A stretch of 64,000 bases of DNA, taken from the NCBI GenBank assembly GCA_019658995.1, contig JAIFWN010000003.1:2436-66435 (forward strand), read 5' to 3'. This document shows, piece by piece, positions 24,340 to 44,010 of this stretch. The notes under the pieces were generated by a model that was not told the DNA's origin, ran no database searches, and saw nothing but the letters and a program-made list of their open reading frames with translations. This DNA is from Candidatus Parcubacteria bacterium (GTDB lineage: Bacteria; Patescibacteriota; Minisyncoccia; Phycocordibacterales; Zambryskibacteraceae). Numbering within the stretch: the first letter of the stretch is position 1; the number at the start of each line of letters is the position of its first letter. The translations under genes and the position numbers were made by a program.

Positions 24340-24348
24340 TCTAAATGT

Positions 24349-24954
24349 ATGAGTGAGGATGCTCTTAAACGCAAAATTGCCGAGCTTGAGAAGACGGTAG
24401 AGTCTTTAGAAAAAGACTTGATCCACGACAAGCTTACGGGGCTCAAAACCCGGGCCTTCTTTGAAGAAGAAGCCAGGATTTACTTCGATGTTGCTATGAA
24501 CGCGGCCATGGAACATGGTCCGAGGAGGAGACAGTGGTTCGGCTTTACTCATATCTCCTTTATATTCTTCGATATCGACCATTTCAAAAAGATCAATGAC
24601 ACTCTGGGTCACCCGGCCGGAGATGAAGTGCTGCAGTCCATAGCCGAGAGCATCAAGACCAGCGTCCGCGATGGTGATACTGCCGCACGCTGGGGCGGCG
24701 AGGAGATTGCCGTAACTCTCGTCGGAGCGACTGAACGCGATGCCTTCCACAAAGCCGAAGACATAAGGAGACAAGTGGAGAATACCCGCTTTGGCAAGTT
24801 CCCGGATCTGAAGATTACCATTTCTGCCGGAGTGGCTTCGGCCTCGCCCGGCGGAACCTTTGAAAAAACTTTGGAAAATGCCGATAAGGCTCTCTATGCA
24901 GCCAAAAATACCGGCCGCAACAGGGTCGTAACGTATTCAGAGATATCGAAATGA
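24349..24954 (+). CDS. GGDEF-domain protein (diguanylate cyclase-like) with N-terminal coiled coil
   Basis: DKLTGL substrate-binding motif, RxxD I-site (RDGD) nine residues before the variant GGEEI, and ALYAAK. About 40-aa coiled-coil N-terminus and no sensor domain. Confidence 0.7.
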   Translation: MSEDALKRKIAELEKTVESLEKDLIHDKLTGLKTRAFFEEEARIYFDVAMNAAMEHGPRRRQWFGFTHISFIFFDIDHFKKINDTLGHPAGDEVLQSIAESIKTSVRDGDTAARWGGEEIAVTLVGATERDAFHKAEDIRRQVENTRFGKFPDLKITISAGVASASPGGTFEKTLENADKALYAAKNTGRNRVVTYSEISK

Positions 24955-27134: not shown

Positions 27135-27211
27135 ATGTGGCGGCTCTAGTTGGGGATATTTTCATATATTTAAGGCTCAGCAGTTGCTAAAATATGGAGT
27201 AAGCAACGCCC

Positions 27212-30200
27212 TTGAAAAAGCACTCTTCTCTGCATCTCATATTCACATTCTTTCTCACGGCGATTCTTATCTACTTGGGCGGATCGCCGCCCGCCGTGAT
27301 GTCCGCCGGAGGAGTGCCATCTATCATAAGTTACCAGGGGCGGCTTGCTGACTCGGCAGGCAACCTCCTCGGCAGCTCATCGGGAACCACATATTTTTTT
27401 GCCTTTTCTATTTGGGATAATGCCACGGTCGGTTCCGGCACGAAGCTCTGGCCTGTGGCCACAACCAGTGTGCCGACGACGGTCAAGTCGGGCGTATTCA
27501 ATGTCAATATTGGTGATACGGCAGGAGGTTATCCGGATACTCTTAACTACACCTTCACCAGCCCTAATATTTTCCTCCAGGTTGATGTGTCATCAAATGG
27601 CACAACCTGGGAAACAGTTTCTCCGCGCCAAAGACTCTCATCGGCTGTATTTGCACAGGTAGCAGAGGCGGTAGTGGGGGCTTCTTCGACCGTAACTACT
27701 CTCACCAATACCAATTTCTACGGTACCTTTGCTACTACGACCAGTGCTACCACTACCAACCTTTTTGCCAATTTTTTAAACAGCGCAACCGTCACAGCTA
27801 GCGGCTTGGGAACATTCGGCAATTTCTTGGCGCTCGGCTCTACGACTCTTCAGAACTTTACTGCACTAAATTCGACAACGACGAATGCCACCACTACGAA
27901 TATTTATGTGAATGGCAAGCTCTACGGAGCCAACCTCACCAACTGCAATAGCAATGCAGACAAACTGCTCTGGGCCAATGGCCTCTTCTCCTGTGGGACA
28001 GATGGAGGCGGAGGTGGATCGGACGTGGATTGGCTCTTCTTCAACAACACCGGAATAAGACTTGGCACTACTACCAACCAGGTCTTGATCGGGTTCAATG
28101 CCACTTCATCTCTGGCTATGCTTGAGCTCAATGTGCAAGCAGGCAAGATACCGCTCTTCATCGGATCGTCGACGGAGTTGTTCAAGATAGACGACTATGG
28201 CCTTGTCTCGGCGAAAAATCTTCTCCTTGACTCTTCAACCACCCTTCAGAACTTCACCTTCGTGAGCGCTACGGGATCACAGGCCACCACTACGAATCTC
28301 TTTACCAACACACTTTTCTCGACTACCGCTTCGTCTACGAATCTCTTTGCCAATACGGCCACCTTCGGCACTCTCGTAGCAGCGAGCTTCAATCCTGCCA
28401 ATATTACGACTGGTAACCTGCTTGTCACTGGCTCATCCACTCTCCAGAATTTCACCTTTATCAACGCCACAGGTTCCCAGGCTACTACCACCAACTTCTT
28501 CTCAACGGGTATCTTCTCAACGATTTTAAATAATTCAGGCCTAGCCACTCTTGGAAATATATTGTCCTCTGGATCATCGACGCTTCAGAACTTCACTTTC
28601 ATTAACGCTACCGGAACTTCCGCTACGACTACCAACTTCTTCTCCATCAATGCTTCGACCACCAACCTCTGGGCTAATGTCATCAGTTCCGGCCTCATTA
28701 ACGGCCAGACTATTACATCCGCTGCTAACTTTACCGGTACTCTAAATGCGACTGGAGGTTTAACAACTCTCTCAAATTTGTTAGTGGCAGGCTCTTCCAC
28801 TCTCCAGAATTTCACCTTTGCTAACGCTACCGGTTCTCAAGCTACGACTACTTACTTCTTCAGTACAAACCTCTTTGGCACGAATGGAAATCTAACAAAC
28901 TTGATATTCAGTCTGGCTACCGGTACCTCTGCCACCACCACTAATTTTTTCAGCACTACCGCCTCTTCTACTAACCTCTTCGCAACCACACTCAATACCG
29001 GTAATATTACCTCCACCGCTCTTGCTACCCTCGCCAATCTCTTAGTATCTGGATCTTCCACTCTCCAAAATTTCACTTTCGTTAACGCCACTGGCTCGCA
29101 AGCCACTACCACGAATCTCTTCTCTGCCAACCTCTTTGGCACTACAGGTTTCCTCACTAACTTACAGCTAAATGGTTCCTCAACTCTCCAAAACTTTACT
29201 TTCTCTAACGCTACCGGCACTTCCGCTACGACTACTAACTTCTTCGCCACCAATGCTTCGACCACCAACTTATGGGCCAACATCATATCTTCGGGTTTGA
29301 TAAACGGCCAAAACATTACAAGTGCCGCTAACTTCACTGGGACTCTCAATGCTACTGGCGGATTGACAACGCTTTCAAACTTGCTTATATCTGGATCTTC
29401 CACTCTCCAGAACTTTACCTTCGTCAACGCCACCGGGACCTCCGCCTCCACTACCAACTTCTTCGCCATCAATGCTTCCACCTCAAACCTCTTCGCCAAC
29501 TCTCTCACAGTAGGGAATATCACTTCAATCCAGGAAACAATCACCAACCTTCTGGCCCTAGGTTCTTCGACCCTGCAGAACTTTACCGGACTTAATTCGA
29601 CCACTACCAATGCCACTACCACCCGTTTAGCCATCATTTCTCTCAACTGCGGGACTTTTACTAACAATGGCAAGCTCACCACTAACGCTGATGGCACGGT
29701 TTCCTGCAGTGATGATATCGCTGCCACACAGGATGTCGATTGGATATTCTTCAACAACACCGGAGTGCGTCTGGCCACGACCACAAACCAAGTTCTCATC
29801 GGTGCAAGCGCCACATCATCTCTAGCCAATCTTGAGATCAGCTTCCAGACAGCAGCTAAGGGCTCACTTCTCACTCTCGGTTCATCGACTCTACAGAATT
29901 TCACCTTCATCACAGCCACCGGCACTGCGGCTACCACTACCAACTTCTTCGGCACTAATATCTTCTCTACGATTCTTAATAACTCGGGTCTGGCGACCCT
30001 GGGAAATTTGCTTGTATTAGGATCCTCAACTCTTCAGGATTTCACTTTCGTTAACGCCACTGGCTCGCAAGCCACTACAACCAGCCTCTTTTCGGCGAAT
30101 GTATTTGGTACGAATGCTAACCTGACAAATCTTATCTTCAGTCTGGCTACCGGCACCAGCGCCACAACTACTAACTTGTTCTCTGGCATATCAAGTTCGA

Positions 30201-33200
30201 CAAATCTCTTCTCTTCAGTTTTGACAGTCGGTAGCAATGCGCTCTTAGTTAACTCAAGCGGCTTTGTAGGCATTGCTACCACTTCGCCATTTGCCAGGCT
30301 TTCGGTAATGCTCAATGCCGGAGATACTAATACCACCGTTTTCGCAATCGGTTCCACCACTGCTACGGGCTTTACAAATCTCTTGAGAGTGGACAATCAA
30401 GGTTCAACTACAGTTAAGACCCTGCGTTTCGACGATACCGGTGCCAACAACCTTTTCTGGACGATACGGGAGGAGTCAGGCAATAACCTGGAAATTTTCT
30501 ATCCCTCGATTCGTCGTGGCGTGTTTGTTAACGCTGGCAATGGAGGCTTTCTCGGAATTGGTACTACCTCAATGCAGGGCTTCTCGTCATTCATCGTTGC
30601 CTCGGCTACCCCGACTATGGAGATTATGGACAACAACGGTCCTGTGGATCTGAAGCACTGGCTCATAAGCGCGGATGCCGGGAAATTCTTCATAGGCAGA
30701 GCGACGGATGACCTTTTATCAACTACCACTTACTTCTTCGTTGACGGCAATATGGGCGGCAATATAGGTCTCAATGAGGCATCACCGAACTTCAGACTCG
30801 AGGCGACAGGTACCAGCGGCAGCGGCTACTTCGGTATTACCAACGCCTCTGACGGCGACGTATTCAGCATTATCTCCACCGGTAATGTGGGAGTCAATGA
30901 TGCCACCCCGGACTTTAAGTTCGAGAGTAACGGCTCGAACGCGAGCGGCTACTTCGGCATCACTAACTCGAGTGATGGAGATATCTTTGCGATAGACGGG
31001 AGCGGAGAAGTGGGCATCGGCATAGTGAATCCGTCATACGCTCTCCATATAGTGGATGATACGAACGAGACGCTCGCCATTGAAACCATTCACACAACCG
31101 GTACATCTCTTGTAATCAAGAACACCAGCGGCGGCGGACACTCCTTTTCTCTCACCAGTACGGGCTCCGACGGCTCGCCAGGCAACTTCGTCATTAGAGA
31201 CAATACGGCGAACTTTACCGGCTTTGATCTTGCCGGAGCCACCGGCAACCTGCAGATTACGCGCGATGCCTACTTCGGCTGGTCATCGAACGCAAGCGAT
31301 GCAAAGGTTGCGGCCGATACTATACTCTCGCGCATCTCTGCCGGGGTTGTTGGCACGGCAAATCTTATACTCTCCGGCAATTCGACCACGTCGCAGGCTA
31401 CTACCACGAACTTCTTCTCGGCAACTATCTTCTCTGATCTTCTAAACAACTCCGGTTTGGCCACACTCGGCAATATGCTTGTTCTCGGCTCGTCCACTCT
31501 CCAGAATTTCACATTCGGCAACGCCACTGGCTCTCAAGCCACCACGACGAACCTTTTCTCGACTAAGGGTAGCTTCACCACTATCTGCTTCACCGGAGAT
31601 GTTTGCCGAACGTCATGGCCATCGACTGGCGGAGGCGGGGGATCAGACACCAATTGGCAATTCTTTAATAATTCTGGCATCCGGCTTGCTACGACTACCA
31701 ACCAGGTTCTCATTGGCGCTTCGGCTACCACATCTCTCGCTAACCTCGAGATCGCCTTCCAGACAGCAGCCGGAGGATCTCTGTATGCTCTTGGCTCCAC
31801 CACCCTTAATAATTTCGCCTTTGCTAACTCAACCGGATCTCAAGCAACTACTACCAACCTATTCTCCACCAATATCTTCAGTACGACAGGAAACGTCTCA
31901 GGCACTCAAACAGCGGGGAATTTGCTCGCCCTCGGATCTTCAACCCTTCAGAACTTCACATTTAGGAACGCTACTGGGAGTGATGCGACTACAACAAATT
32001 TCCGTGTTTCTAATAGAGCAAATATCGTGGATCTCACGGTTGGTAGTATAGAGGGCCTTAATTCAGCATCCTTTAATGTTACAGATGATGCCTCGGGTAT
32101 ATTCGAAGTCAATTCAGCGTCAGTAGGAGATGTATTCACTGTGAATGATTTTGGAACCCCCTATTTTTCAAGGAATCTCGGACTTGGCACATCGACGCCG
32201 TCTGCCAACCTGACGATACAGGATCCCAATCCAGAAATAAATTTCTATGAAAGTAATAACTTCGCCAAAACCAGGCTGGTTCAGCTTGGCGATTCGGAAT
32301 TCGATATCGTTATGTATGACGGTTCGGGTGTTGTCACAAACGCTCTCAATATGAATTTCAACGGCGAAAACGAATACCTTTCCGGTATGTCTGGAACACT
32401 CGGCAGCAATGCAAGCGCTCGGCATGTGTTCTACATCTCACAAAGTGAAGTTGGGGGATTCGATTACAGAGGACTTTTCTCTATTGGTAGTACTAAAACA
32501 AGCGGTGGAACAGCTGTGGCGGCACTCGATGTGACTGGAAACGGTTACATAAGCGGCAAGCTAGGAGTAGGTACAACTACTCCGTATGCAGGCCTCCAAA
32601 TAGCCACATCTACAAGGCCGCAACTCATACTTACGGATATTCTGGCCGGACCTAATGTCAAACATTTCTATGCATCTTCTACGAACGGCCGTCTTGCCAT
32701 AGGCAATCTAAGCGATAATCTCGGATCCTTTACCGATATCATGGACTTGAGCTCGACAGCGATAAACTTCACGCTTGGCAGCGAGGAAAATAAAAGTTTC
32801 AATATCAAAGATGGCCCCGGGCTAACCACTCTCTTTTCGGTTGATAACGATACCAAGACAGTGGGTATCGGGACCACTACGCCCGGAGCTAAATTAGAAG
32901 TGGCCAAAACCTCTTCTGGAGCTACCTCAGATGCTCTCTTCCTTTCCAACCAGGCCTCCGCAACCAATACAGCTACCCGCCTCTCCTTCAGAGCCCAGGA
33001 TATAAAGAATATTGCTACCACTACAGCTTCAATCGTCGGTTTATTGGGTAAGAATTTCGATCAAGCTACCTCAACCCTGATCTTCTCCACACAAAATGCC
33101 GGCACCCTCACCGAGCAAATGCGATTAACTGACACAGGCCTCCTGCTGATCGGATCAACTACACTGCAAAATTTTACATTCAGAAATGCTACCGGCACCT

Positions 33201-35455
33201 CGGCTACAACCACCAACTTCTTCGCTACGAACGCTTCAACCACTAACTTTTTCGCTAACGTAATAAGTTCAGGTCTTATCAATGGCCAGACAATATCAAG
33301 CGCTGCGAACTTCACAGGCACTCTCAATGTCACAAGCGGTCAGACAACCGTATCAAATCTTTTGGCGACGGGATCCAGCACCCTCCAGAACTTCACTTTT
33401 GTTAATGCTACTGGCACTTCGGCTACAACCACCAACTTCTTCGCTACAAATGCTTCCACGACTAACCTCTTCTACGCCAACGCTGTCGGAGGAGCGGAGA
33501 CCCTGAGTGGATTGCTGACGGCTGCCAATATCCGATCGAACGGCTCGTCCACCCTCCAGAACTTCACATTTGTAAATGCGACGGGTTCCCAGGCTACGAC
33601 TACAAATTTGTTCTCAACTAACTTATTTGGCACGACAGGCAACTTCTCTGGTCTCTTAACTCTCGGAAATCTTTTGCTCACAGGCTCTTCGACCTTCCTG
33701 AATCTAACTTTTGTTAATGCTACCGGCACTTCCGCCACAACTACAAATCTCTTTGCCACCACGCTCTTCTCAACCACTCATAACAACTCGGGTCTGATCA
33801 CTACAGGCAATCTCCTGGCATCAGGCTCTTCAACTTTGCAGAGTTTTACAGCAATTAATTCGACAACATCACAGGCTACCTCGACCAATTTCTTCTCAAC
33901 GAATATCTTCGGCACAACAGGAAATATTTCTGGACTCTCGACTTTCGGCAATCTCCTTGTGTCCGGGTCGAGCACGCTTCAAAACCTCACCTTCTCCAAT
34001 GCGACGGGCTCGCAAGCTACCACAACAAATATCTTCTCCACTAACATCTTCGGCACGACTGGAAATGTTTCCGGTCTGGCTACTTTGGGTAACCTCCTCG
34101 TCTCCGGCTCCTCCACTCTTCAGAACTTCACTTTCGTTAATGCTACCGGCACTTCCGCTACAACAACAAACTTCTTCGCTACGAATGCTTCTACTACCAA
34201 TCTCTTCTTCACGACCAGCAGGGGAGGATCGGAGACCCTCACTGCCACTCTCACCGCCAATAATCTTCTTGCTAACGCTTCTTCCACTCTCCAAAACTTC
34301 ACATTTGTTAACGCCACAGGCTCACAAGCGACGACAACGAATCTGTTTGCAACCAATCTTTTTGGCACTACGGGAAATATATCGGGTACGCAGACAGTGG
34401 GGAATTTACTCTCGCTAGGCTCATCAACCTTACAAAACTTCACATTCTCTAACGCCACAGGCACTTCAGCGACCACAACCAACTTCTTTGCTACCAATGC
34501 TTCGACCACAAACTTCTGGGCAAACGTTATATCTTCTGGTCTTATCAATGGCCAAACCATTACCTCTGCAGCCAACTTCACCGGAACTCTTAATGTTACA
34601 AGCGGACAAACTACACTCTCAAATCTTCTTGTTACTGGGTCTTCAACCCTCCAGAACTTCACCTTCATAAACGCGACGGGTTCCCAGGCTACTACAACAA
34701 ATTTATTTGCCACAACTCTATTCTCAACAACACACAATAATTCGGGTCTTGGTATATTTGGCAATATTCTGTCCCTTGGCTCATCTACTCTTCAGAATTT
34801 CACGTTTGCTAATGCTACCGGTTCCCAGGCGACAACAACCAGTCTTTTTGCGACGAAAGCAGACTTTACAACTCTATGTATAGCTCAGGATTGTAAAACA
34901 GCCTGGCCTACGTCCGGAGGAGCTTCCACTGATAAGTTTGCAACTTCAACAAACGGATTGGCAATTTATCCGAACAGCGCCGCGGCAGTAGTGATAGGCG
35001 GCAGTGCCACAACCACAACCGGAGCAGAGCTCGAAGTACTCGGGGATATCTATGTTTCTGGTTCCTCAACCCTTCAGAACTTTACCTTCATAAACGCCAC
35101 AGGAACTTCAGCGACCACTACTAATTTATTTAGTACTACGGCTTCTTCTACAAACCTCTTCGCTACTGCTATCCAAGCCGGTACGGCCACATTCAATAAT
35201 ATTCTTGGGAACAGCTCCTCCACTCTCCAAAACTTCACCTTCGTCAACGCTACGGGTACATCGGCCACCACCACCAATTTCTTCGCTACCAACGCCTCTA
35301 CTACCAACTTCTTCTTTACCACATCGAACGGCGGCAACGAGACCCTTACTGCTCGAACTTCACATTCATCAACGCCACTGGCTCCCAGGCTACGACCAGT
35401 AACCTATTCAGTACGAATATATTTGGTACCACCGGCAATTTGTCTGGACTCCTGA
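27212..35455 (+). CDS. Giant repeat-rich surface protein, N-terminal segment (2747 aa), most likely one gene with 35440..41061
   Basis: TTG start. N-terminal hydrophobic helix (LHLIFTFFLTAILIYLGG). Then dozens of diverged ~40-45-aa repeats (GSSTLQNFTFxNATG[ST]xATTTN[LF]F[AS]T) and three Cys-pair/DVDWxFFNNTGxRLxTTTNQVLIG modules. Ends in frame-shifted repeat sequence. Confidence 0.7.
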   Translation: MKKHSSLHLIFTFFLTAILIYLGGSPPAVMSAGGVPSIISYQGRLADSAGNLLGSSSGTTYFFAFSIWDNATVGSGTKLWPVATTSVPTTVKSGVFNVNIGDTAGGYPDTLNYTFTSPNIFLQVDVSSNGTTWETVSPRQRLSSAVFAQVAEAVVGASSTVTTLTNTNFYGTFATTTSATTTNLFANFLNSATVTASGLGTFGNFLALGSTTLQNFTALNSTTTNATTTNIYVNGKLYGANLTNCNSNADKLLWANGLFSCGTDGGGGGSDVDWLFFNNTGIRLGTTTNQVLIGFNATSSLAMLELNVQAGKIPLFIGSSTELFKIDDYGLVSAKNLLLDSSTTLQNFTFVSATGSQATTTNLFTNTLFSTTASSTNLFANTATFGTLVAASFNPANITTGNLLVTGSSTLQNFTFINATGSQATTTNFFSTGIFSTILNNSGLATLGNILSSGSSTLQNFTFINATGTSATTTNFFSINASTTNLWANVISSGLINGQTITSAANFTGTLNATGGLTTLSNLLVAGSSTLQNFTFANATGSQATTTYFFSTNLFGTNGNLTNLIFSLATGTSATTTNFFSTTASSTNLFATTLNTGNITSTALATLANLLVSGSSTLQNFTFVNATGSQATTTNLFSANLFGTTGFLTNLQLNGSSTLQNFTFSNATGTSATTTNFFATNASTTNLWANIISSGLINGQNITSAANFTGTLNATGGLTTLSNLLISGSSTLQNFTFVNATGTSASTTNFFAINASTSNLFANSLTVGNITSIQETITNLLALGSSTLQNFTGLNSTTTNATTTRLAIISLNCGTFTNNGKLTTNADGTVSCSDDIAATQDVDWIFFNNTGVRLATTTNQVLIGASATSSLANLEISFQTAAKGSLLTLGSSTLQNFTFITATGTAATTTNFFGTNIFSTILNNSGLATLGNLLVLGSSTLQDFTFVNATGSQATTTSLFSANVFGTNANLTNLIFSLATGTSATTTNLFSGISSSTNLFSSVLTVGSNALLVNSSGFVGIATTSPFARLSVMLNAGDTNTTVFAIGSTTATGFTNLLRVDNQGSTTVKTLRFDDTGANNLFWTIREESGNNLEIFYPSIRRGVFVNAGNGGFLGIGTTSMQGFSSFIVASATPTMEIMDNNGPVDLKHWLISADAGKFFIGRATDDLLSTTTYFFVDGNMGGNIGLNEASPNFRLEATGTSGSGYFGITNASDGDVFSIISTGNVGVNDATPDFKFESNGSNASGYFGITNSSDGDIFAIDGSGEVGIGIVNPSYALHIVDDTNETLAIETIHTTGTSLVIKNTSGGGHSFSLTSTGSDGSPGNFVIRDNTANFTGFDLAGATGNLQITRDAYFGWSSNASDAKVAADTILSRISAGVVGTANLILSGNSTTSQATTTNFFSATIFSDLLNNSGLATLGNMLVLGSSTLQNFTFGNATGSQATTTNLFSTKGSFTTICFTGDVCRTSWPSTGGGGGSDTNWQFFNNSGIRLATTTNQVLIGASATTSLANLEIAFQTAAGGSLYALGSTTLNNFAFANSTGSQATTTNLFSTNIFSTTGNVSGTQTAGNLLALGSSTLQNFTFRNATGSDATTTNFRVSNRANIVDLTVGSIEGLNSASFNVTDDASGIFEVNSASVGDVFTVNDFGTPYFSRNLGLGTSTPSANLTIQDPNPEINFYESNNFAKTRLVQLGDSEFDIVMYDGSGVVTNALNMNFNGENEYLSGMSGTLGSNASARHVFYISQSEVGGFDYRGLFSIGSTKTSGGTAVAALDVTGNGYISGKLGVGTTTPYAGLQIATSTRPQLILTDILAGPNVKHFYASSTNGRLAIGNLSDNLGSFTDIMDLSSTAINFTLGSEENKSFNIKDGPGLTTLFSVDNDTKTVGIGTTTPGAKLEVAKTSSGATSDALFLSNQASATNTATRLSFRAQDIKNIATTTASIVGLLGKNFDQATSTLIFSTQNAGTLTEQMRLTDTGLLLIGSTTLQNFTFRNATGTSATTTNFFATNASTTNFFANVISSGLINGQTISSAANFTGTLNVTSGQTTVSNLLATGSSTLQNFTFVNATGTSATTTNFFATNASTTNLFYANAVGGAETLSGLLTAANIRSNGSSTLQNFTFVNATGSQATTTNLFSTNLFGTTGNFSGLLTLGNLLLTGSSTFLNLTFVNATGTSATTTNLFATTLFSTTHNNSGLITTGNLLASGSSTLQSFTAINSTTSQATSTNFFSTNIFGTTGNISGLSTFGNLLVSGSSTLQNLTFSNATGSQATTTNIFSTNIFGTTGNVSGLATLGNLLVSGSSTLQNFTFVNATGTSATTTNFFATNASTTNLFFTTSRGGSETLTATLTANNLLANASSTLQNFTFVNATGSQATTTNLFATNLFGTTGNISGTQTVGNLLSLGSSTLQNFTFSNATGTSATTTNFFATNASTTNFWANVISSGLINGQTITSAANFTGTLNVTSGQTTLSNLLVTGSSTLQNFTFINATGSQATTTNLFATTLFSTTHNNSGLGIFGNILSLGSSTLQNFTFANATGSQATTTSLFATKADFTTLCIAQDCKTAWPTSGGASTDKFATSTNGLAIYPNSAAAVVIGGSATTTTGAELEVLGDIYVSGSSTLQNFTFINATGTSATTTNLFSTTASSTNLFATAIQAGTATFNNILGNSSSTLQNFTFVNATGTSATTTNFFATNASTTNFFFTTSNGGNETLTARTSHSSTPLAPRLRPVTYSVRIYLVPPAICLDS

Positions 35456-35800
35456 CTCTCGGCAATCTTTTGCTTACTGGTTCCTCCACTCTCCAAAACT
35501 TCACCTTCGTTAATGCTACCGGTACTTCCGCTACAACAACAAACTTCTTCGCTACAAATGCTTCCACAACCAATCTCTTTGCCACAGCTATACAAGCCGG
35601 TACCGCAACGTTTAACACCATTCTCGCCAATGCTTCCTCCACTCTCCAAAACTTCACCTTCGTCAACGCTACGGGTACATCGGCCACCACCACCAATTTC
35701 TTCGCTACCAACGCCTCTACTACCAACTTCTTCTTTACCACATCGAACGGCGGCAACGAGACCCTTACTGCTCGTACCAATGCCACAACCACAGGGACTC
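27660..35800 (+). repeat. Coding tandem repeat array, about 135-bp (45-codon) diverged units
   Basis: Recurrent GGNTCNTCNACNCTNCAGAAYTTCACNTTC cores at irregular ~120-140 bp spacing. Units differ at DNA level except one exact 140-bp duplicate. Confidence 0.8.
35216..35774 (+). repeat. Exact 140-bp direct duplication (35216..35355 and 35635..35774), 419-bp period, spanning the ORF break
   Basis: The two blocks match at every base by line-by-line comparison. The 419-nt period makes the copies fall in different frames. Confidence 0.9.
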
Positions 35801-38800
35801 TCAATGTGAACGGGCTCCAGTTTGCGGACAACGGAGCCAACAACCGATACTGGACGATCACCGAAGATGCAGGCAATAATCTTCAGATTTCCTACCCTGT
35901 AGCTACCGATGTCCGTATCAATCAGAACTTCCTGGTCAGTGGCTCTACCACTCTTCAGAATTTCACATCGCTCAACGCTACCACTGCTCAGGCCACTACT
36001 ACAGCCCTGGCTATAAGCAGTCTTAATTGTTCTTCGGGCGCACAGCTCCTCCAGACAAACTCATCAGGCAGCGTAATCTGCGGTACGGACGATGGCGGTG
36101 CCGGCAGTACGCCTGGGGGTAATGCCGGAGCAGTACAGTTCAACGACGGTGCAAGCGGCTTCACCGGCAACGAAAACTATCTGTTCTTCAGTAATGCCAA
36201 TAAACTCTTTGGTATCGGAAGCTCCACTCCGACTGCTATTTTATCGGCGTCGAGTACGACTGCGCTGCTTCCGGTAGCAATCTTTGATCAGCGCAGTACG
36301 GGAGGGCTTCTTACTCTCCAGCGTTCGGGAGTGGACAAGTTCACAGTCAGTAACGACGGCGGACTCAATATTTATGGCGCAACTTCCGATTCTGTCAAAA
36401 CCACTACGGGCACCGGCAAATCATCTGACTTCGACTTTACCGGTTCCACTATCGCAACCGCCAGCACTACCGCAACAAACGGTTATGTGACTATCATTGA
36501 CGGCACGATCTCCGGAGACGGTATAGTTTCCGCAACCACTACTACGACCGGTACGGTCATAGGAAACGGCGCCCAGGTTATCATTCGCTCCGACGGGCAA
36601 TATGTGATTATCCAAGGAGGTGGTACGGCAACAGCTTCTATCTGGGACGGATTCAAGAGTGGTTCCGGTGCAGCAAGCATGGCAACCACTACCATCGCTA
36701 CCGGCGGTACGGTTAACACAGGCGCTATAGCTGTCAAGCGCCCAGACGGCAGATATGTCATCTTCCACGGAGGTGCCGCTAACTTGAGTTCGATATTTGA
36801 TCCTTACAACATAACAGCAGCGGTAGCCGGTCCGCCTCCGGGAGGAGCTTGTACGACCGGTACTAACGCATTTCTGCGTCCCGACGGCAAGTATGTAGTC
36901 ATATGCGGAGGAACTACGGGATGGGGAGTATATGATCCGTCTCAGGCTCCTCCGGGCTCACTTACTGCCGGTACCGCCATAGGCGGCAACTGGGGGGCTG
37001 GCGCACACGCACTCTCAAGAGATGACGGAACCTTCCTTGTTTATCAGGGAGGTGGATCCAATACCTTTATTTACAATCCGTTCACCAATACCATGACAGC
37101 GGGTCCTACTGCGCCCGCCGCTATTGCCGCCGGTGCTTTATCTGTTCGGAGGCAGGACGGCACATTCCTTACTCTTCCGGGAGCGGCCAATACTTCCTAT
37201 TCCTATAATCCGGTAAGCACTACAACGCCGAACGGGCAGGGAGCCTTCGTTACCAATTTCGGAGTCGGACCTTCATCATCACTCTCTGACGGCTCGACAA
37301 TACTCTGGAGACAAGACGGGAAGTACACTCTGATTACCGCCAATACTACCGTGTTAAACGTGGTAGATCCCGGTTCCGGATCTATTGTTCCTAAGTTTAC
37401 CAATCCGGGCGCACCCCTAGCTCTTTCCGGGAATGCCGGAGCGGGTATCACTGCCTTTATGCTGCCGAACGGCAGGTACGCCATACTGCGCGGCGGCGGC
37501 CAAGCCATTGATACTTACGACATGAACTTCGCTACCGGTTTATCGAGCGGCAATGTTCAAAATTCATACTACGAAAGCGAATGTATAGATAACACCAATT
37601 TGTCCTTGGACTCGACTCTGAACTGGAACAAAAATGACGAAGGCACTATCTCGGCCCAAATAAGAACTGTAACCAGTCCTCAGGACTGCTCGACGGCGAC
37701 ATACCGCACCATACAATCTAGCGGCAGTCTCATTGGTGCCACCACTACGGCCAACAACAGGGTCCAGTTCAAATTCTTCTTCCAGCGCGAACTTCCGAGA
37801 TTCCTCGACCAGGAGTGGGGTGTGCGTAAGACCGCGCAGACCAGATACCGCCGCGTCAACGCCGACCCGGTCCTCTATGATGTAACGGTAGACAACTCCA
37901 CATCACTCCATAGAACGCAGTTCGACTTTGGCAATGCCGTATCCTCTACTACGGCACCATCTTCAGGACCGGTAGCGGTTAACATTACCAATGACACAAA
38001 CCGCAACAACGCCTTAGCTCTGGCTGCAGGCGTCGGCTACGGCACTACCATTAACACTGCGAATAACGGCTATTACAACGGAGCTTTTGGCTTTGCCCAG
38101 CCGCTTTCAACACCGACAGCATCCACCACCGTGGTAATGAAGCGCCCCGATGGCAAGTTCACTATCATTGCCGGTAACAATACGATCAACTCCAATGTTT
38201 ATGACCCGGCACTGGCTACCTCTACTGCCGCCACTGCCGCAGCCAATAAACCTACGGTACAAATAGGCAATGGCGCATTGGCCTTCAAGCGTCCCGATGG
38301 CAAGTTCCTGATAGTCATGGGTAACACGAGCAGTACCACGGTCTCCTCCGTTGGTGCTACTACTACGAACATTTATGATCCGGTTACCGACACGTACGTT
38401 GCCGGACCGAATCTGGCAACCGGCGGAAGCAGTAACGGTGCCGGTGCCGGCGCGGCTGTCATTCCTCTCCCTAGCGGCAGGGTACTCATCATTCATGGCA
38501 ATGCTACCAACGCTACTTCTGTATATGATCCGGTACAGAACACCATGACTGCCGGACCGAATCCTACGGCTGTAGTAGGTTACGGTTCAATAGTGATTCC
38601 TCGTCCTAACGGCCAGTATATGTTCATACCCGGTATGGTCTCGCTTACCTCTTGTACGGTGAACACCACAGTTAACCTCTTCGATCCATATGCCATGGTG
38701 TTTACTACAAATGCTGGTGTGGCTAATGCAGGCGGCACAGGACCGGGAGCCTTTGCATTACAAAGGAGTGACGGCACATGGCTCATAGTTCGTGGAGGTG

Positions 38801-41061
38801 CATCAACCGGTTGTCTCGGTACGGGCACTACTGCTATCTATGATCCAGTCTCCCATCTGTCCACTATTACCGGTCCTGGTTTATCAACAAATGTCGGCCT
38901 TGGAGCTTACGCTCTGCCTCGTCCTGACGGCACATGGCTTCTTGTAAATGGCGGCGGCGGAGTATCACTCGCCGGTCAGAGTGCTACACAAATATATATA
39001 GAACGAGGTGGAGGGTTAACCGCTACCGGTGACCAGTCAACAATTGGCGCATTTATCTCTGGTCCGACGATGAACGTGGCGGCAAATAGCGGAGGTACGG
39101 CCTTTCAGCTTCCTGACGGCAAGTTCGCCATCATAACGGGAGCTGCGACTACCACTACATCCAACAGTATGCAGTTCTACGATGCAGGATGGGTAGCGAG
39201 TGGCATATACAGGTCTGAGCAATTTGACCTCTCTCCAGTGGGGACGAAGCTCGATTCCAACTCAACTCTTAACTGGAAGTCGAACATGATATCATCCGCT
39301 GTGGGCGGTATCTCCGCCGAAGTAAGGAGCGCTCCCACACAAGCTGCTCTGGCAACGAGTACTACGAGGGAGATACCGATATCGGGCGGACTCATCAATC
39401 CGGCCGCCACCGACACCTGGCTCCAGATAAACTTCAACTTCAGGAGAAGCTTCCCATCTTACGGAGGTATATACAGCGACGTATGGTACTCTTCCGCATC
39501 TATGAGCTATCCACTTCGTCCTGTTGTTACTCCGACTTTGTATGAATTTAAGATAACAAAAGATGATGATCTTTTGACTCTTAACGCCGATGGCTTGGCG
39601 CTCTTCAGAGTCAACTCTGGCGGAGACGTCTATACATCGACAGGAGGCACCATCAACACCTCCGGCGCAGACCTTGCCGAGCGCTATACCTCGCAAGAGC
39701 CTCTCGACTTCGGCGAAGTGGTCTCGGTCGATCCGATGAATAATCATGCGGTCAAGAAAACTTCTTACCAATATCAGCCCGATGCACTCGGTGTGGTCTC
39801 GACCGATCCGGGCTTCGTGGCGGGCGCTTATACTGAAGATTCTTATCCAATAGCTCTTGTCGGCCGCGTGCCGGTAAAGGTTTCGACGGAAAACGGCTTC
39901 ATCCGCGCCGGCGACAAGCTCACAGCAGCGAGCGTCCCTGGCTATGCCATGAAGGCTACTCTTGCCGGACATGTTATCGGCCACGCACTCGAGAATCTTA
40001 AGAGCGATAAGCTTGTAGACTGCCCGGCAAGCAGTATCGTCATACCCGGCAGGAAGTGCGGAGTTGTGATGATGTTCGTCAGCCTTGGGGATTTCATAGG
40101 AGAACCGGTTGGCGATGCCATGATGGAGTACAACAGTTTGCACAATATAGATATTTCGAGCTTTGCTACTACATCTGTGATGCTCGGCGATGAAGCTATA
40201 GGCATTGTACCGGGTACGAGGGAAGCCAACGTATTGAACTTCCTAGAAAACCTGAGGAAGGATAGGGAAGCCGGCTCTTCTTACCGCTCCGAAGTATTTG
40301 CCGATAGAGTATCGGCTGTTTCAGACATTATCGCGCCAAACATTTTTACCCGTATTCTCAAGGCTGAAAGTGTGGAAGGACTGACATTTAAAAGCGATAA
40401 GGTCATTGCCAATGCTTTGGTAGTAAATAGCATCGGTGCTGAGGGCACGACCACGCTAGCTCTTATGGGTGATGTGAACTTCTTCGGTCGACCTTACTTT
40501 ACTTCGGACACTGCTGGCAGTGCCATCATAAAGAAGGGCGCTAAAACAGTGGAGATCATCTTCGACAAGGAGTACATCGATACGCCGATAGTGAGTTCCA
40601 CTATCGCTCTTGAGTCGGCTTCGACGAGCGAAGCACAGGAAGAAGAGATATTCACTCAAGATATCCGCTTCATAGTCTCAAGAAAGAGTGTTCACGGCTT
40701 TACCATAATCTTGAACAAGCCGGCTCCAAACGACATCGGCTTCAGCTGGATAGCTCTGGCGGTGAAGGACTCAAAACTCTTCACCTCAAGAGAAATACCG
40801 CTTGCCGAGACTACTCCGATCACCGCAGTTGTAGAATCTGTGCCTCCTCCGCCAACAACTCCGCCAGTCTCAAATGAGCCGACTTCTACAACCACTATGC
40901 CAGTTGAGGCAACAAGCACTCCATCTATGATAGAAACCACGCCTACAACTACTCCTTCCGTATTACCATCTGAACCAGAATTAACTCCCCAAGTCGAGCC
41001 CGAATCAACACCTATAGTTGATGTTTCTCCATCTGAACCATCCCCGCAAAGCGGGCCATAA
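35440..41061 (+). CDS. Giant surface protein, C-terminal segment (1873 aa): repeats, Kelch-like propeller blades, C-terminal globular region, Pro/Thr-rich tail
   Basis: The track starts at a TTG inside continuing repeat sequence. About 12 blade-like units of pattern [RK]xDG[KT][FYW]hhhxGG ... YDP. Ends with a P/T/S/E-rich low-complexity tail. Confidence 0.7.
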   Translation: MSGLLTLGNLLLTGSSTLQNFTFVNATGTSATTTNFFATNASTTNLFATAIQAGTATFNTILANASSTLQNFTFVNATGTSATTTNFFATNASTTNFFFTTSNGGNETLTARTNATTTGTLNVNGLQFADNGANNRYWTITEDAGNNLQISYPVATDVRINQNFLVSGSTTLQNFTSLNATTAQATTTALAISSLNCSSGAQLLQTNSSGSVICGTDDGGAGSTPGGNAGAVQFNDGASGFTGNENYLFFSNANKLFGIGSSTPTAILSASSTTALLPVAIFDQRSTGGLLTLQRSGVDKFTVSNDGGLNIYGATSDSVKTTTGTGKSSDFDFTGSTIATASTTATNGYVTIIDGTISGDGIVSATTTTTGTVIGNGAQVIIRSDGQYVIIQGGGTATASIWDGFKSGSGAASMATTTIATGGTVNTGAIAVKRPDGRYVIFHGGAANLSSIFDPYNITAAVAGPPPGGACTTGTNAFLRPDGKYVVICGGTTGWGVYDPSQAPPGSLTAGTAIGGNWGAGAHALSRDDGTFLVYQGGGSNTFIYNPFTNTMTAGPTAPAAIAAGALSVRRQDGTFLTLPGAANTSYSYNPVSTTTPNGQGAFVTNFGVGPSSSLSDGSTILWRQDGKYTLITANTTVLNVVDPGSGSIVPKFTNPGAPLALSGNAGAGITAFMLPNGRYAILRGGGQAIDTYDMNFATGLSSGNVQNSYYESECIDNTNLSLDSTLNWNKNDEGTISAQIRTVTSPQDCSTATYRTIQSSGSLIGATTTANNRVQFKFFFQRELPRFLDQEWGVRKTAQTRYRRVNADPVLYDVTVDNSTSLHRTQFDFGNAVSSTTAPSSGPVAVNITNDTNRNNALALAAGVGYGTTINTANNGYYNGAFGFAQPLSTPTASTTVVMKRPDGKFTIIAGNNTINSNVYDPALATSTAATAAANKPTVQIGNGALAFKRPDGKFLIVMGNTSSTTVSSVGATTTNIYDPVTDTYVAGPNLATGGSSNGAGAGAAVIPLPSGRVLIIHGNATNATSVYDPVQNTMTAGPNPTAVVGYGSIVIPRPNGQYMFIPGMVSLTSCTVNTTVNLFDPYAMVFTTNAGVANAGGTGPGAFALQRSDGTWLIVRGGASTGCLGTGTTAIYDPVSHLSTITGPGLSTNVGLGAYALPRPDGTWLLVNGGGGVSLAGQSATQIYIERGGGLTATGDQSTIGAFISGPTMNVAANSGGTAFQLPDGKFAIITGAATTTTSNSMQFYDAGWVASGIYRSEQFDLSPVGTKLDSNSTLNWKSNMISSAVGGISAEVRSAPTQAALATSTTREIPISGGLINPAATDTWLQINFNFRRSFPSYGGIYSDVWYSSASMSYPLRPVVTPTLYEFKITKDDDLLTLNADGLALFRVNSGGDVYTSTGGTINTSGADLAERYTSQEPLDFGEVVSVDPMNNHAVKKTSYQYQPDALGVVSTDPGFVAGAYTEDSYPIALVGRVPVKVSTENGFIRAGDKLTAASVPGYAMKATLAGHVIGHALENLKSDKLVDCPASSIVIPGRKCGVVMMFVSLGDFIGEPVGDAMMEYNSLHNIDISSFATTSVMLGDEAIGIVPGTREANVLNFLENLRKDREAGSSYRSEVFADRVSAVSDIIAPNIFTRILKAESVEGLTFKSDKVIANALVVNSIGAEGTTTLALMGDVNFFGRPYFTSDTAGSAIIKKGAKTVEIIFDKEYIDTPIVSSTIALESASTSEAQEEEIFTQDIRFIVSRKSVHGFTIILNKPAPNDIGFSWIALAVKDSKLFTSREIPLAETTPITAVVESVPPPPTTPPVSNEPTSTTTMPVEATSTPSMIETTPTTTPSVLPSEPELTPQVEPESTPIVDVSPSEPSPQSGP

Positions 41062-41069
41062 AATAAAAT

Positions 41070-41471
41070 ATGACAAAAAAATATAAACTTGCTTTAAGTG
41101 TTGCTCTAGTTTTGGTGATGGGCGTGTTTGTTGGAGTAGGGATCGTAAAGGCGACTGGAAGTAACCAAATAACCACTTTTAATTTAATAGGGGATAATAA
41201 GTTCAAATTTCATGTAGTTAGCTTCGATTGCTCTACATCTACTGACGAAACTTTCACATTACCTACAACCGTTCAGAATAACGGAGTGATTCAAGTAGTA
41301 AAAACAGATTCAACCTCTTGCTCTGGTAGAAAGATAACTCTCCTACCATCTTCGGGAGATATGATTGAAGGCGGACCCGAATATGTTATTTTTTCTGGTA
41401 CAGGTTCTGCAGTTACATTTGTTGCTGACGGAGCAAATAGAAATTGGTGGGCAATTAGTAGCTATAGATAG
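41070..41471 (+). CDS. Small secreted hypothetical protein
   Basis: 133 aa with signal/anchor helix (LALSVALVLVMGVFVGVGIV) and a Cys-containing beta-rich domain. Confidence 0.45.
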   Translation: MTKKYKLALSVALVLVMGVFVGVGIVKATGSNQITTFNLIGDNKFKFHVVSFDCSTSTDETFTLPTTVQNNGVIQVVKTDSTSCSGRKITLLPSSGDMIEGGPEYVIFSGTGSAVTFVADGANRNWWAISSYR

Positions 41472-41523: not shown

Positions 41524-41919
41524 ATGGAAAATTTGAAGCAGGAATTCAAGAGTCTGTCTAAGAAGTTAAGAATGGTATTTCTGGCAGTTCTGACAGTCGG
41601 GATCCTTAGCTTAATCTCAACGGCCGTATTGGCAGAGAAGCTCCAGAAGGCTTCGGATCCGGCTCTGGCTGCGCAGGAAGAGATACAGAAGGTCGTGGCT
41701 GAAGTGGGAAGGTTCATAATCCTGCCTGACGATGAGACCCCAACCATGGCAACTGTCTCGGACCCCTCGAAGCTTAGCGGCCAGCCGTTCTTCGAAAATG
41801 CGGAAGCTGGTGATAAGGTTCTCATCTATACCATATCCAGGAAGGCTATACTCTGGAGACCGTCTACAAAGAAAATAATCGAGGTAGCCTCTATCAATGT
41901 CACTTCTCCAGCACAATAA
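41524..41919 (+). CDS. Membrane-anchored hypothetical protein
   Basis: 131 aa, N-terminal coiled segment plus TM helix; TATAAT 8 nt upstream. Confidence 0.45.
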   Translation: MENLKQEFKSLSKKLRMVFLAVLTVGILSLISTAVLAEKLQKASDPALAAQEEIQKVVAEVGRFIILPDDETPTMATVSDPSKLSGQPFFENAEAGDKVLIYTISRKAILWRPSTKKIIEVASINVTSPAQ

Positions 41920-43243
41920 CAGAGCACTTAAGGTTCTCATTCTCTCTTTCGTCTTTGCCGGAATATTTTCCACAGCTAGGGCGCAAAACTTCTCTTCCGG
42001 CGGCTATTCCGTACTCGCTCCAGTTATCGCTCCCGGCGGACACTCTACCTCCCCAAGCTACTCTCTCATAAGCGTAATATCCCAGCTTGCCATAGGCACT
42101 TCATCGGCAACCGCTTTTAATCTATCAAGCGGTTTCCTGTATTATCCCTTCATAACCACGCCTATTCTCGCGGCCACTCCGGGTAATGCGCAGGTAGTGC
42201 TCAATTGGACGGCTGCCGACGGTGTGCTTGGCTGGTCGGTCGGCTCGTACTCGGTGGGACAAACTGTTACGGCGGGCAGTGATTACTCATACACTAATGT
42301 CGGCAATGTACTCACCTCGACTCGTACAGGACTTTCCAATGGCACTACTTACTACTTTATAATCCGGGTCATCGACGCGGCTGGCAATACAGTAGCTACT
42401 TCGACTGAAGTCTTTGCTATGCCCGTCGCTCCGGCTGGCGGAGGAGGTGGAGGCGGGGGCGGAGGTGGCGGAGGAGGTGGAGGCGGGGGCGGAGGATACA
42501 CTGGCGGTGGTACTGGGAGCGGCAGAGTGAACTTCTCAGGACGGGCCTATCCGCGAAGTACGGTGACGGTTCTTAAGGACGCACAAGTTGTCATTACTAC
42601 CGTGGCTGATGCTGCAGCCAACTTCGCAGTCTCACTTATGAACCTCTCGGGAGGTAATTACTTCTTCTCATTATATAGCGAAGACAACAATGGCGTGCGC
42701 AGCAGTCTCCTGACCTTTCCGGTTTCCGTTACCGATGGCTCTACCATGAATATCGGAGGCATCTTCATCACTCCGACCATTGCCGTAGACAAAAGCGAAG
42801 TCAAAAGGGGAGACAATATCTCTATCTTTGGCCAGACGGCCGCCCAGAGTGATGTCACGATCCAGGTTAACTCCGACGAGCCCTTCTTCGCCAAAACCAA
42901 GGCTGATGCCTCCGGTGGCTATCTCTATAATTTCGACACGGTGCCACTTGAGTATGGCGACCACAGCACCAAATCCAAGAGCGCTTTGTCGGGTGAGATC
43001 AGCTCATTCAGCTCCGTTGCCGCCTTCAAAGTCGGCACACAGAACGTGCTTATAGGCAACTTGCCGAAGACTTGCAATAAAAAGGGCGATACCAACAAGG
43101 ACTGCAAGGTTAACCTTGTGGACTTCTCTATAGTAGCCTTCTGGTACAAGCGCCCCAATCCGCCGGCCAATGTCGATCTGAACGGCGATAAAAAAGTGGA
43201 CCTCATAGACTTTTCCATACTGGCTTATAACTGGACCGGATGA
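41897..43243 (+). CDS. Secreted FN3-like/Ig-like protein with C-terminal dockerin-type tandem Ca-binding repeats
   Basis: Signal peptide, FN3-like segment (PGNAQVVLNWTA ... TTYYF), 40-residue Gly tract, Ig-like region. C-terminal duplicated dockerin type I segments GDTNKDCKVNLVDFSIVAFWY and DLNGDKKVDLIDFSILAYNW. Confidence 0.65.
   Translation: MSLLQHNNRALKVLILSFVFAGIFSTARAQNFSSGGYSVLAPVIAPGGHSTSPSYSLISVISQLAIGTSSATAFNLSSGFLYYPFITTPILAATPGNAQVVLNWTAADGVLGWSVGSYSVGQTVTAGSDYSYTNVGNVLTSTRTGLSNGTTYYFIIRVIDAAGNTVATSTEVFAMPVAPAGGGGGGGGGGGGGGGGGGGGYTGGGTGSGRVNFSGRAYPRSTVTVLKDAQVVITTVADAAANFAVSLMNLSGGNYFFSLYSEDNNGVRSSLLTFPVSVTDGSTMNIGGIFITPTIAVDKSEVKRGDNISIFGQTAAQSDVTIQVNSDEPFFAKTKADASGGYLYNFDTVPLEYGDHSTKSKSALSGEISSFSSVAAFKVGTQNVLIGNLPKTCNKKGDTNKDCKVNLVDFSIVAFWYKRPNPPANVDLNGDKKVDLIDFSILAYNWTG
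42431..42490 (+). repeat. Tandem 30-bp x2 GGN repeat encoding the poly-Gly linker
   Basis: GGCGGAGGAGGTGGAGGCGGGGGCGGAGGT is repeated twice head-to-tail. Confidence 0.9.
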
Positions 43244-44010
43244 TGAAATACCCAATATATATAGCATCTCTTATGCTTCTGCTCCCTGTGACTCTCTCCG
43301 CAGCTACGGCTGTTATAGAAGTTGATACGATATCGGAATCCGTGAACGCACTCGAAGCTACTGTCCGGATCCCTTTAGGTATGGAAGTTAAAGAAGTCCG
43401 AAGCGGTGATTCGGTAATAGTCTTTTGGATCACTCCGCCTACGCTGTCGACATCGACAAATTCCATTTCCTTTGCCGGATTTACTCCGGGCGGGTTCAAG
43501 GGCAAACGGACGGTCTTCTCTGTTGTCGGTGAGTTCGACAAGAGCGATCTCTCCGGCATAACATTCAGCGCGGTGCAGGCGCTTAAGAACGACGGTGAGG
43601 GCACGTCTGCCTCGGTCAGGCTTAGCGCCTCTCTTTCAGAATCGGTAGAGGATACCATCGTGCCGGAAACATTTGCTCCTCTTCTGTCGCGATCCGACGA
43701 TGTCTATGCCGGCCGGCTGTTCGTTTCCTTCTCGGCTCTCGATAAGAATACCGGTGTAGCCAAGTTTGAGGTAGCCGAGACCTTCTTCGGCCGACCTGAT
43801 GACGAGGACTGGGTGGAGGCCGCAAGTCCGTATGAAGTCAAAGACAATCTGCTCTTGAAGAGAGTTTATATAAAAGCTACTGACCATAAGGGCAATTACA
43901 GAGTAGAGTCTGTTTCTCTGCCGTACAGGCTCCCCGCAGAGATTTTCCTTGCTATAATTATTGGAGCGTTATGTATACTCGCTCTTCGCTATTCAAAGCG
44001 CTCTTCGTAA
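43240..44010 (+). CDS. Cohesin-like domain surface protein with C-terminal TM anchor
   Basis: Signal peptide; ~140-aa beta-sandwich (VNALEATVRIPLGMEVKEVRSGDSVI ... ISFAGFTPGGFKGKRTVFSVVGEF ... ITFSAVQALKNDGEGT); C-terminal TM helix. Start overlaps the dockerin gene stop by 4 nt (ATGA). Confidence 0.5.
   Translation: MMKYPIYIASLMLLLPVTLSAATAVIEVDTISESVNALEATVRIPLGMEVKEVRSGDSVIVFWITPPTLSTSTNSISFAGFTPGGFKGKRTVFSVVGEFDKSDLSGITFSAVQALKNDGEGTSASVRLSASLSESVEDTIVPETFAPLLSRSDDVYAGRLFVSFSALDKNTGVAKFEVAETFFGRPDDEDWVEAASPYEVKDNLLLKRVYIKATDHKGNYRVESVSLPYRLPAEIFLAIIIGALCILALRYSKRSS

Follow-up and report, generated by a model that had tools for sequence, protein, structure and literature searches.

We describe a 13.8-kb gene on the forward strand of a 64,000-nt window (the whole stretch of DNA that was analysed, part of the 84,368-bp Candidatus Parcubacteria contig JAIFWN010000003.1), which probably encodes a Sec-secreted, modular surface fibre of ~4,600 aa that resembles a phage tail fibre and is itself probably trimeric. 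Patescibacteria, also called the candidate phyla radiation (CPR), are abundant, mostly uncultured small-genome episymbionts whose attachment to partner cells is largely unexplained. An earlier examination of the letters alone (hereafter the sequence-only reading) had proposed a giant repeat-built surface protein in a small-genome bacterium, which our analysis supports, the protein being secreted and the bacterium a member of the Parcubacteria. We were led to a tail-fibre-like fibre rather than an unknown adhesin because the C-terminal region was identified as a chaperone domain of the type found in phage phi29 gp12. The fibre reading also follows from the architecture, which parallels that of a phage tail fibre in having one end for attachment, a long stalk rich in beta structure, a head for binding and, at the C-terminus, an intramolecular chaperone. 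It gains context from paralogues in which the STLQNFTF repeat is combined with a terminal Peptidase_S74 domain (the 'chaperone of endosialidase'). The signal peptide, the neighbouring secreted and dockerin proteins and the giant surface proteins known from CPR bacteria (PMC8080830) suggest a role at the cell surface. Taken together, we hold the fibre to be the likelier explanation, with a fair margin of doubt.

The C-terminal module and its chaperone-like domain

The 'C-terminal globular region' of the sequence-only reading is present, and what had been left unidentified there consists of a gp12-type auto-chaperone-like domain and a lectin-like beta-sandwich. Both belong to a module (the C-module, residues 4123-4560 of the joined protein) that is common to more than 60 otherwise different giant proteins and was found at 391 loci among 185,579 species-representative genomes, with nearly all of the titles listed naming Patescibacteria lineages. 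An AlphaFold2 (AF2) model of the C-module, built from 21 sequences, displayed two domains with a predicted local distance difference test score (pLDDT) of ~90 and a variable, poorly modelled linker. In this predicted structure the chaperone-like domain has the D4 (beta-tulip) fold of gp12. The D4 domain of gp12 is described as helping the trimer to assemble, in the manner of an auto-chaperone, and as being removed afterwards by proteolysis (bioRxiv 10.1101/216911; PMC4690869; PMC13317679). The cleavage motif Ser/Ala-Asp-x-Ala-Glu stands at the start of the domain, and hhalign placed ADLAERY on gp12 S691-D692-F-A-E695-Y (E=3e-4). The gp12 residue numbers come from an alignment to the phi29 genome record, and the gp12 cleavage point was deduced from PDB chain 3gqh_A, whose 163 residues correspond to residues 692-854 and start at D692. 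The C-module profile had no match among PDB sequences, and the beta-sandwich had no Pfam match, its likeness to H-type lectins being at the level of predicted fold only.

A phi29-D4-like domain is widespread at the C-terminus of phage proteins, where we found it in 247 viral contigs (IMG/VR loci L088-L167 among them). Gp359 of Pseudomonas phage PA5oct, a virion protein detected by mass spectrometry whose gene adjoins a long-tail-fibre gene, and a hypothetical protein of Sinorhizobium phage Phosso both have C-terminal domains that start with ADLAERY, at 39-40% identity; neither protein has a Pfam match to this domain. The D4-like domain alone matched two PHROG families without assigned function, in each case at the C-terminal end, and the PA5oct and Phosso proteins also matched a PHROG named 'tail fiber protein', again at its C-terminal end. 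At the viral loci checked, A-D-[LMVYF]-A-E starts the domain in 65 of 65, and the reading frame stops 114-129 aa past the motif Asp (160 aa in one). Among the Patescibacteria loci the motif was found in 78 of 80, preceded by Ala in 72, and in the C-module alignment its Glu is invariant and its Asp nearly so. Some C-module loci lie in metagenome-assembled genomes (MAGs) titled 'uncultured Gammaproteobacteria' or 'Bdellovibrionales/Pseudobdellovibrionaceae' (L030, L035, L052, L055-L057, L061, L063, L064, L066, L067, L082, L083).

Peptidase_S74 (PF13884) was matched by neither open reading frame (ORF) of the gene, yet three Patescibacteria giants with the same repeat (P0112, P0125 and P0048) end in this domain, and P0125 also carries the pectate-lyase-like domain of gp12. 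Downstream of the C-module, the Pro/Thr-rich tail noted previously was confirmed as Pro/Thr/Ser-rich and looks soluble. No LPx[TSA][GASN] sortase motif occurs in the last 200 residues, and no Pfam matches to the YadA-type barrel anchor, Hep_Hag or HIM of trimeric autotransporter adhesins were found.

Two reading frames, one gene

The gene is assembled as two adjacent same-strand ORFs, 27212-35455 and 35440-41061 (+), of 2747 and 1873 aa, exactly as the sequence-only reading had reported, and they are identical in sequence to KW796_01460 and KW796_01465, which NCBI annotates as hypothetical proteins in a Candidatus Parcubacteria MAG. With high confidence we regard them as one gene, of 4,616 codons once the frames are merged at 35355/35356. 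The earlier argument for this, a repeat vocabulary shared by both sides of the junction, holds, and homologues now strengthen it. The complete homologues P0010, P0011, P0012 and P0015 (2345-2769 aa) join a signal peptide and N-terminal domain of the ORF1 type to a body of the ORF2 type in a single protein. In the closest relative, L001, whose body is 73% identical, a 3618-codon ORF spans the array and runs on into the body; it is preceded by a 285-codon ORF with the signal peptide and N-terminal domain, in an assembly that is indel-rich and has fragmented ribonucleotide reductase (RNR) genes.

The sequence around the junction argues in the same direction. The ORF2 frame has no stop from 35200 on, and from 35356, which is 84 nt upstream of the first possible start codon of ORF2 (its nominal TTG at 35440), it encodes the inner part of a repeat unit (NFTFINATGSQATTSNLF...); the unit profile matches the ORF2 side from model position 13, starting exactly at the break. 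By sequence inspection, no Shine-Dalgarno-like motif precedes that TTG and ORF2 has no signal peptide. Besides the junction, no other stop or frameshift was found in the 13.8 kb. That the ORFs are two truly separate genes, one for a repeat protein and one for a propeller protein, agrees with the two coding sequences annotated by NCBI, and we consider it very improbable, since the ORF2 repeat begins in the middle of a unit ahead of any start codon, ORF2 lacks both an export signal and a ribosome-binding site, and every complete homologue is a single protein with both ends. The case calls for caution in annotation, as a giant repeat gene has been split into two coding sequences by a frame break associated with its repeats.

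The sequence-only reading had described the break as a single frame change inside a repeat. A -1 change is indeed found there; it is not a simple indel and sits at the end of a perfect 140-nt duplicate (copies A and B in Table 1), with 46 nt missing. The two copies are identical over their whole length, the next-longest exact repeat being 40 nt, and it is precisely with the final base of copy A that the frame shifts. In an alignment with the paralogous unit boundary at 34105-34420, the end of copy A lacks 46 nt (15 codons + 1), and the assembled junction reads GCTCG/AACTTCAC (the slash marks the break). Programmed -1 ribosomal frameshifting was rejected as unlikely, because there is no X XXY YYZ slippery heptamer at GCTCG/AAC. 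We therefore take the break to be either a mis-assembly or consensus error at the repeat or a very recent inactivating lesion.

An artefact of assembly or consensus calling, with the real gene intact, seems to us about an even chance. The break coincides with a perfect repeat, repeats are a classic site of assembly or polishing errors, and the relatives are intact across the array. The homologue in Parcubacteria bacterium C7867-005 (L002) ends at a contig edge inside the same kind of array, so assemblers evidently struggle here. The length of 140 nt equals k-1 for k=141, which we take, as an unverified lead only, to be the highest k that one commonly used metagenome assembler applies by default. 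De Bruijn assemblers, however, do not normally invent junctions, and on general reasoning a junction in a k-mer assembly must normally exist in the reads, which favours a real lesion. Somewhat less probable than the artefact, a very recent gene conversion or recombination event would have overwritten this stretch with 140 nt of the downstream unit and removed 46 nt, leaving a pseudogene in which ORF1 would yield a chaperone-less fragment and ORF2 would be neither secreted nor translated. The coincidence of the junction with the end of a perfect tract, in an array whose other units are 60-83% identical, speaks for such an event, as do the intact GroEL, RNR and RNase J genes of the window, which make random indel error atypical of the contig. 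The absence of a second disabling mutation anywhere in the gene speaks against a pseudogene, and it would fit either an artefact or a recent lesion. No independent assembly of the population was found, the right flank of the junction being unmatched by exact search in metagenome contigs of the Joint Genome Institute (JGI).

Promoter and terminator scans over the gene returned sites no more numerous than in shuffled sequence. Long antisense ORFs of up to 367 aa lie inside it (28852-29955, 34120-34764 and 39292-40143, all on the minus strand, and others); the biased composition most likely accounts for them.

Signal peptide, repeat array and body

Behind a Shine-Dalgarno-like motif and a TTG start, the protein opens with a hydrophobic segment that had been read as an 'anchor or signal'. 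The segment is signal-like, and rather than an anchor it appears to be a cleavable signal peptide: homologues have an AxA-type site at the same place, directly before a conserved GVPxIxxYQGRL (GVPxIxxYQGRLxDxxGNLLG...). The domain that follows (residues 34-168) is shared, at ~60% identity, by at least 24 homologues whose bodies differ, and in all of these it comes straight after the signal peptide; it has no Pfam match and, by profile, no PDB match. Its uniform position and high conservation across differing bodies suggest that it has a conserved binding partner.

The main repeat has the unit consensus xTLGNLLxxGSSTLQNFTFxNATG[TS]xATTTN[FL]F.... A hidden Markov model of the unit (unit HMM) finds ~34 units (30 full, one truncated at the junction and three half), where ~170 copies of a 25-45-aa unit had been claimed; 29 copies are found at the DNA level. 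The units are spaced 41-87 aa apart, and both the mode and the hydrophobic autocorrelation peak lie at 47 aa. They form three blocks (joined-protein residues 162-1005, 1389-1616 and 1973-2948) with two non-repeat inserts between them. The described degeneracy at the DNA level applies to the array as a whole, apart from the one perfect 140-nt copy. The sequence-only reading had concluded that the array is ancient and not a recent expansion, which we do not uphold, given that perfectly duplicated stretch and an array content that differs sharply from that of a close relative. The array of L001 (locus 1278-6400, JGI 3300072492 Ga0642625_11913) holds ~10 near-identical Cys-pair modules (GLTTCTGxSQSLHWSGGxLSCV...), far above the count here. 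From this sequence comparison, arrays appear to evolve quickly, their content turning over between relatives whose bodies are 73% identical. In the present gene the three Cys-pair modules proposed earlier were all recovered, each with a D[VT][DN]WxFFNN[TS]G[IV]RLxTTTNQVLIG motif after the Cys pair; two more Cys pairs lack a DVDW-type motif. GC skew falls to ~-0.33 at 28000-30000 and 34000-36000, inside the array, which reflects its C-rich, G-poor Thr/Asn/Ser codons and is not a replication signal.

That the core repeat lies outside the named families stands after database searches. Neither the STLQNFTF unit nor the whole ORFs had a significant match in Pfam, NCBIfam or PHROGs, the unit profile found nothing among PDB sequences at E<=10, and Pfam searches of ten sub-segments at E<=10 returned sub-threshold noise only (CBM49, FG-GAP_3, Glyco_hydro_30C). 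By contrast, among 1.84 billion representative proteins the unit profile matched 445 at E<=1e-3 and 51 at E<=1e-30; of the best 150 of the 445 matches, 19 exceed 3,000 aa, the longest having 6,621 aa. Nearly all source-named matches belong to the Patescibacteria group (Parcubacteria, Paceibacterota, Zambryskibacteria, 'Patescibacteria group') or are labelled just 'bacterium', and two weak loci were found among 2.9 million viral contigs. The repeat is thus real and unnamed, and those matches whose source can be placed suggest that it is restricted to one lineage. The sequence-only reading had suggested a beta-solenoid or fibre; when eight units were modelled as a monomer with AF2 (11-row alignment), the model was all-beta, with ~4 short strands per unit and a mean pLDDT of 42, and Foldseek found nothing at E<1 with it. 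Such a score is as expected for an obligate oligomer and equally for a shallow alignment; the model and its fold search were taken neither for nor against any fold.

The body beyond the array comprises 14 blade-like repeats of ~45-55 aa each in two sets of seven, each set followed by a beta-rich domain, and the two halves (propeller plus following domain) are 29% identical (E=1e-32). The sequence-only reading had counted ~12 Kelch-like blades; the count is 14, and the Kelch-likeness is weak, consisting of a match to the Kelch domain of PDB 6ryv (E=4e-4), the sole match in PDB searches with both ORFs. No Pfam Kelch match reached threshold in either ORF.

Table 1. Coordinates of the giant gene, its parts and the genes directly downstream (window positions)
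Feature	Position	Strand	Remarks
Whole reconstructed gene	27212..41061	+	ORF1 frame to 35355/6, then ORF2 frame from 35356
GGAG, Shine-Dalgarno-like	27196..27199	+	12 nt upstream of TTG start 27212; read from sequence
Signal peptide	27212..27310	+	KKH, 18-residue hydrophobic core, ...AVMSA/G; sequence inspection
Conserved N-terminal domain	27311..27715	+	GVPSIISYQGRLADSAGNLLG...PRQRL; directly after signal peptide
Repeat array block 1	27695..30226	+	Units 41-87 aa, mode 47 aa
Cys-pair module 1	27944..28201	+	C245...C261, Gly run, then DVDWLFFNNTGIRLGTTTNQVLIG
Cys-pair module 2	29648..29851	+	C813...C832, then DVDWIFFNNTGVRLATTTNQVLIG
Non-repeat insert 1	30227..31375	+	VGI(A/G)TTSP-type motifs; no family match
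Repeat array block 2	31376..32059	+	Contains Cys-pair module 3
Cys-pair module 3	31586..31756	+	Within array block 2
Non-repeat insert 2	32060..33127	+	LGLGTSTP / VGIGTTTPGAKLEV motifs; no family match
Repeat array block 3	33128..36054	+	Most regular block; crosses the frame break
Perfect 140-nt duplicate, copy A	35216..35355	+	Last base is the final base in ORF1's frame sense
Frame break (-1)	35355..35356	+	46 nt missing vs paralogous boundary; next unit from model position 13
Perfect 140-nt duplicate, copy B	35635..35774	+	In-frame continuation ETLTARTNATTTG...
Beta-propeller 1	36523..37560	+	Seven blade-like repeats, R/K-x-D-G-x-[FYW] core; weakly Kelch-like
Domain after propeller 1	37561..38100	+	YYESECID...LNWNKN...; duplicated after propeller 2
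Beta-propeller 2	38101..39225	+	Seven blade-like repeats; contains weak PDB 6ryv Kelch match
Domain after propeller 2	39226..39576	+	Paralogue of 37561-38100
phi29 gp12 D4-type (beta-tulip) auto-chaperone-like domain	39664..40098	+	
A-D-L-A-E motif	39667..39681	+	A4153-E4157 of the joined protein; D1411, E1414 in ORF2
Small C-terminal beta-sandwich	40504..40776	+	Predicted fold like H-type lectins and distal phage tailspike/pyocin fibre domains
Pro/Thr/Ser/Glu-rich tail	40891..41058	+	59% P+T+S; no LPxTG, no terminal hydrophobic segment
Secreted/membrane cluster directly downstream	41070-41471, 41524-41919, 41897-43243, 43971-45728		

The flanks of the gene hold housekeeping and surface functions. 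Upstream are genes for GroEL, LemA, TPM, GGDEF, NUDIX, tRNA-Ser and PEBP, including a LemA-TPM pair and a stand-alone GGDEF diguanylate cyclase at 22929-24954, which have no relation to the giant gene. Downstream are small membrane proteins, a Big_6/dockerin protein, an OmpL47-like protein and ribonucleotide reductase. The cluster directly downstream comprises a 133-aa protein with an N-terminal transmembrane segment and a Cys-containing domain, a 131-aa transmembrane protein, a 448-aa protein (22-Gly run, Big_6, dockerin) and the OmpL47-like protein. The giant gene is likewise followed by a 133-aa gene in L002 and a 131-aa gene in L001, a likeness in size.

Competing readings and known systems

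In the model that we propose, the signal peptide would direct Sec export and the N-terminal domain would fix the protein to some conserved part of the envelope of the cell itself, much as phage fibres are held on the virion by their N-termini. A stalk of ~2,000 aa, made of the ~34 Thr/Asn/Ser-rich all-beta units and broken up by Cys-pair knobs and two globular inserts, would then carry a distal binding head of two tandem modules, each a seven-bladed propeller with its beta domain. If phi29 gp12 and Peptidase_S74 fibres are taken as the pattern, three chains would come into register and fold starting from the C-terminal chaperone, which would then possibly cut itself off at A/DLAE. The likely use of the fibre would be contact with partner cells, in keeping with proposals for giant CPR surface proteins (PMC8080830). 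Our results establish the single-gene architecture, the fold and motif of the chaperone domain and where that domain occurs; the trimer, the autocleavage, the polarity of anchoring and a part played in binding to host or partner cells are inferences.

Several observations weigh against this fibre. The chaperone-like domain is internal, whereas Peptidase_G2/D4 domains stand at the extreme C-terminus: ~320 residues follow it (the variable linker, the lectin-like sandwich and the P/T tail), so that cleavage, if any, may differ in its consequence, or the domain may be retained. An hmmscan of the C-module found no PF11962 (Peptidase_G2) match at E<=10, where gp12 itself scores 325 bits, and the hhalign probability to gp12 alone is 39%. 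The monomer model of the stalk repeat is poor, with no significant fold match. Neither end has a recognised anchoring motif, which leaves the polarity of attachment a guess. Finally, the gene is out of frame as assembled, and expression as a single protein may not occur in this genome at all.

Part of this evidence could be accommodated by a monomeric beta-solenoid adhesin or an S-layer-like coat, in which the D4-like domain would be a retained interaction module and not a cleaved chaperone. Every fold match of the repeat model, though weak and non-significant, is to a single-chain right-handed beta-helix, beta-tulip domains also serve as plain protein-protein interaction modules (bioRxiv 10.1101/216911), and the internal position of the domain would suit such a role. 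We nevertheless judge the solenoid unlikely. The A-DLAE motif falls exactly at the domain start at nearly every bacterial locus and at every viral locus checked, sister proteins with the same repeat carry Peptidase_S74, and the monomer model from which the beta-helix matches derive is itself of low confidence. The phage-like C-terminal domain might also suggest a prophage or phage tail-fibre gene, which, like programmed -1 frameshifting between the ORFs, we consider extremely improbable. No phage-like genes lie among the flanking genes in the window, the protein has a Sec signal peptide and the repeat is nearly absent from viral contigs; prophage origin was rejected on the gene context and that near absence, as frameshifting was on the break site.

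The tail-fibre-like fibre therefore remains the reading that we prefer, and a more far-reaching version of it can be put forward only tentatively. In that version the STLQNFTF array would be a structurally new trimeric beta-fibre stalk, and the gene would be one of a modular family of domesticated tail-fibre-like organelles found throughout Patescibacteria. In this family the attachment domain at the N-terminus would be conserved, the stalk would evolve fast, the heads could be exchanged and the C-terminal auto-chaperone would be of the phi29 or S74 type. Self-cleavage at A/DLAE would part the mature fibre from a lectin-like, wall-associated C-terminal piece. If this were true, these episymbionts would rely chiefly on the fibre to reach their partner cells and keep hold of them.

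The phi29-type auto-chaperone with its cleavage motif offers a concrete assembly mechanism for hypothetical giants, in which C-terminal trimerisation would be followed by self-cleavage at A/DLAE, and the chaperone domain links the Patescibacteria giants evolutionarily to phage tail fibres. Three unnamed modules, the N-terminal domain, the 47-aa repeat and the C-module, are ready as profiles for family databases. In the literature on CPR/Patescibacteria with tail fibres or intramolecular chaperones, no paper describing the family was found. The protein is best filed as a chaperone-assisted tail-fibre-like surface fibre with an unnamed repeat, an unnamed N-terminal domain and a Patescibacteria-wide C-module.

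Among known systems, the pre-neck appendage (tailspike) gp12 of phi29 (PF11962 Peptidase_G2, the intramolecular chaperone (IMC) autoproteolytic cleavage domain) shares the D4-type fold and the A-DLAE motif with our protein. It differs in that PF11962 is unmatched here and that the chain continues well past the domain, where the phage ORFs end shortly after the motif Asp; moreover, the Parcubacteria protein is cellular and Sec-secreted, not part of a virion, and its cleavage and ATP dependence are putative. Bacterial 'tail fiber domain-containing proteins' with Peptidase_S74 likewise combine a long beta-rich stalk with a C-terminal intramolecular chaperone, and the STLQNFTF repeat occurs in S74-ended Patescibacteria giants as well, whereas the giant fibre described here has no S74 and uses the phi29-type chaperone fold. 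The putative head resembles Kelch/galactose-oxidase-type seven-bladed propellers in its two sets of seven blades and its weak 6ryv match, and a distant homologue, P0028, has precomputed Kelch_1 and DUF1668 matches; it differs from them in that Pfam Kelch stays below threshold. The beta-sandwich resembles H-type lectins (Helix pomatia agglutinin, SLL-2, discoidin C-domain) and the distal domains of pyocins and tailspikes in predicted fold only. CPR bacteria are enriched in giant membrane and surface proteins thought to mediate host attachment, such as the membrane proteins of 1,392-4,163 aa in Vampirococcus lugosii, with WD40, PKD, integrin or fibronectin-type domains (PMC8080830). Our gene shares with these giants a small genome, a very large gene for a secreted surface protein and a presumed attachment role, and is set apart from them by its repeat, its N-terminal domain and its phi29-type chaperone module, which were not reported there.

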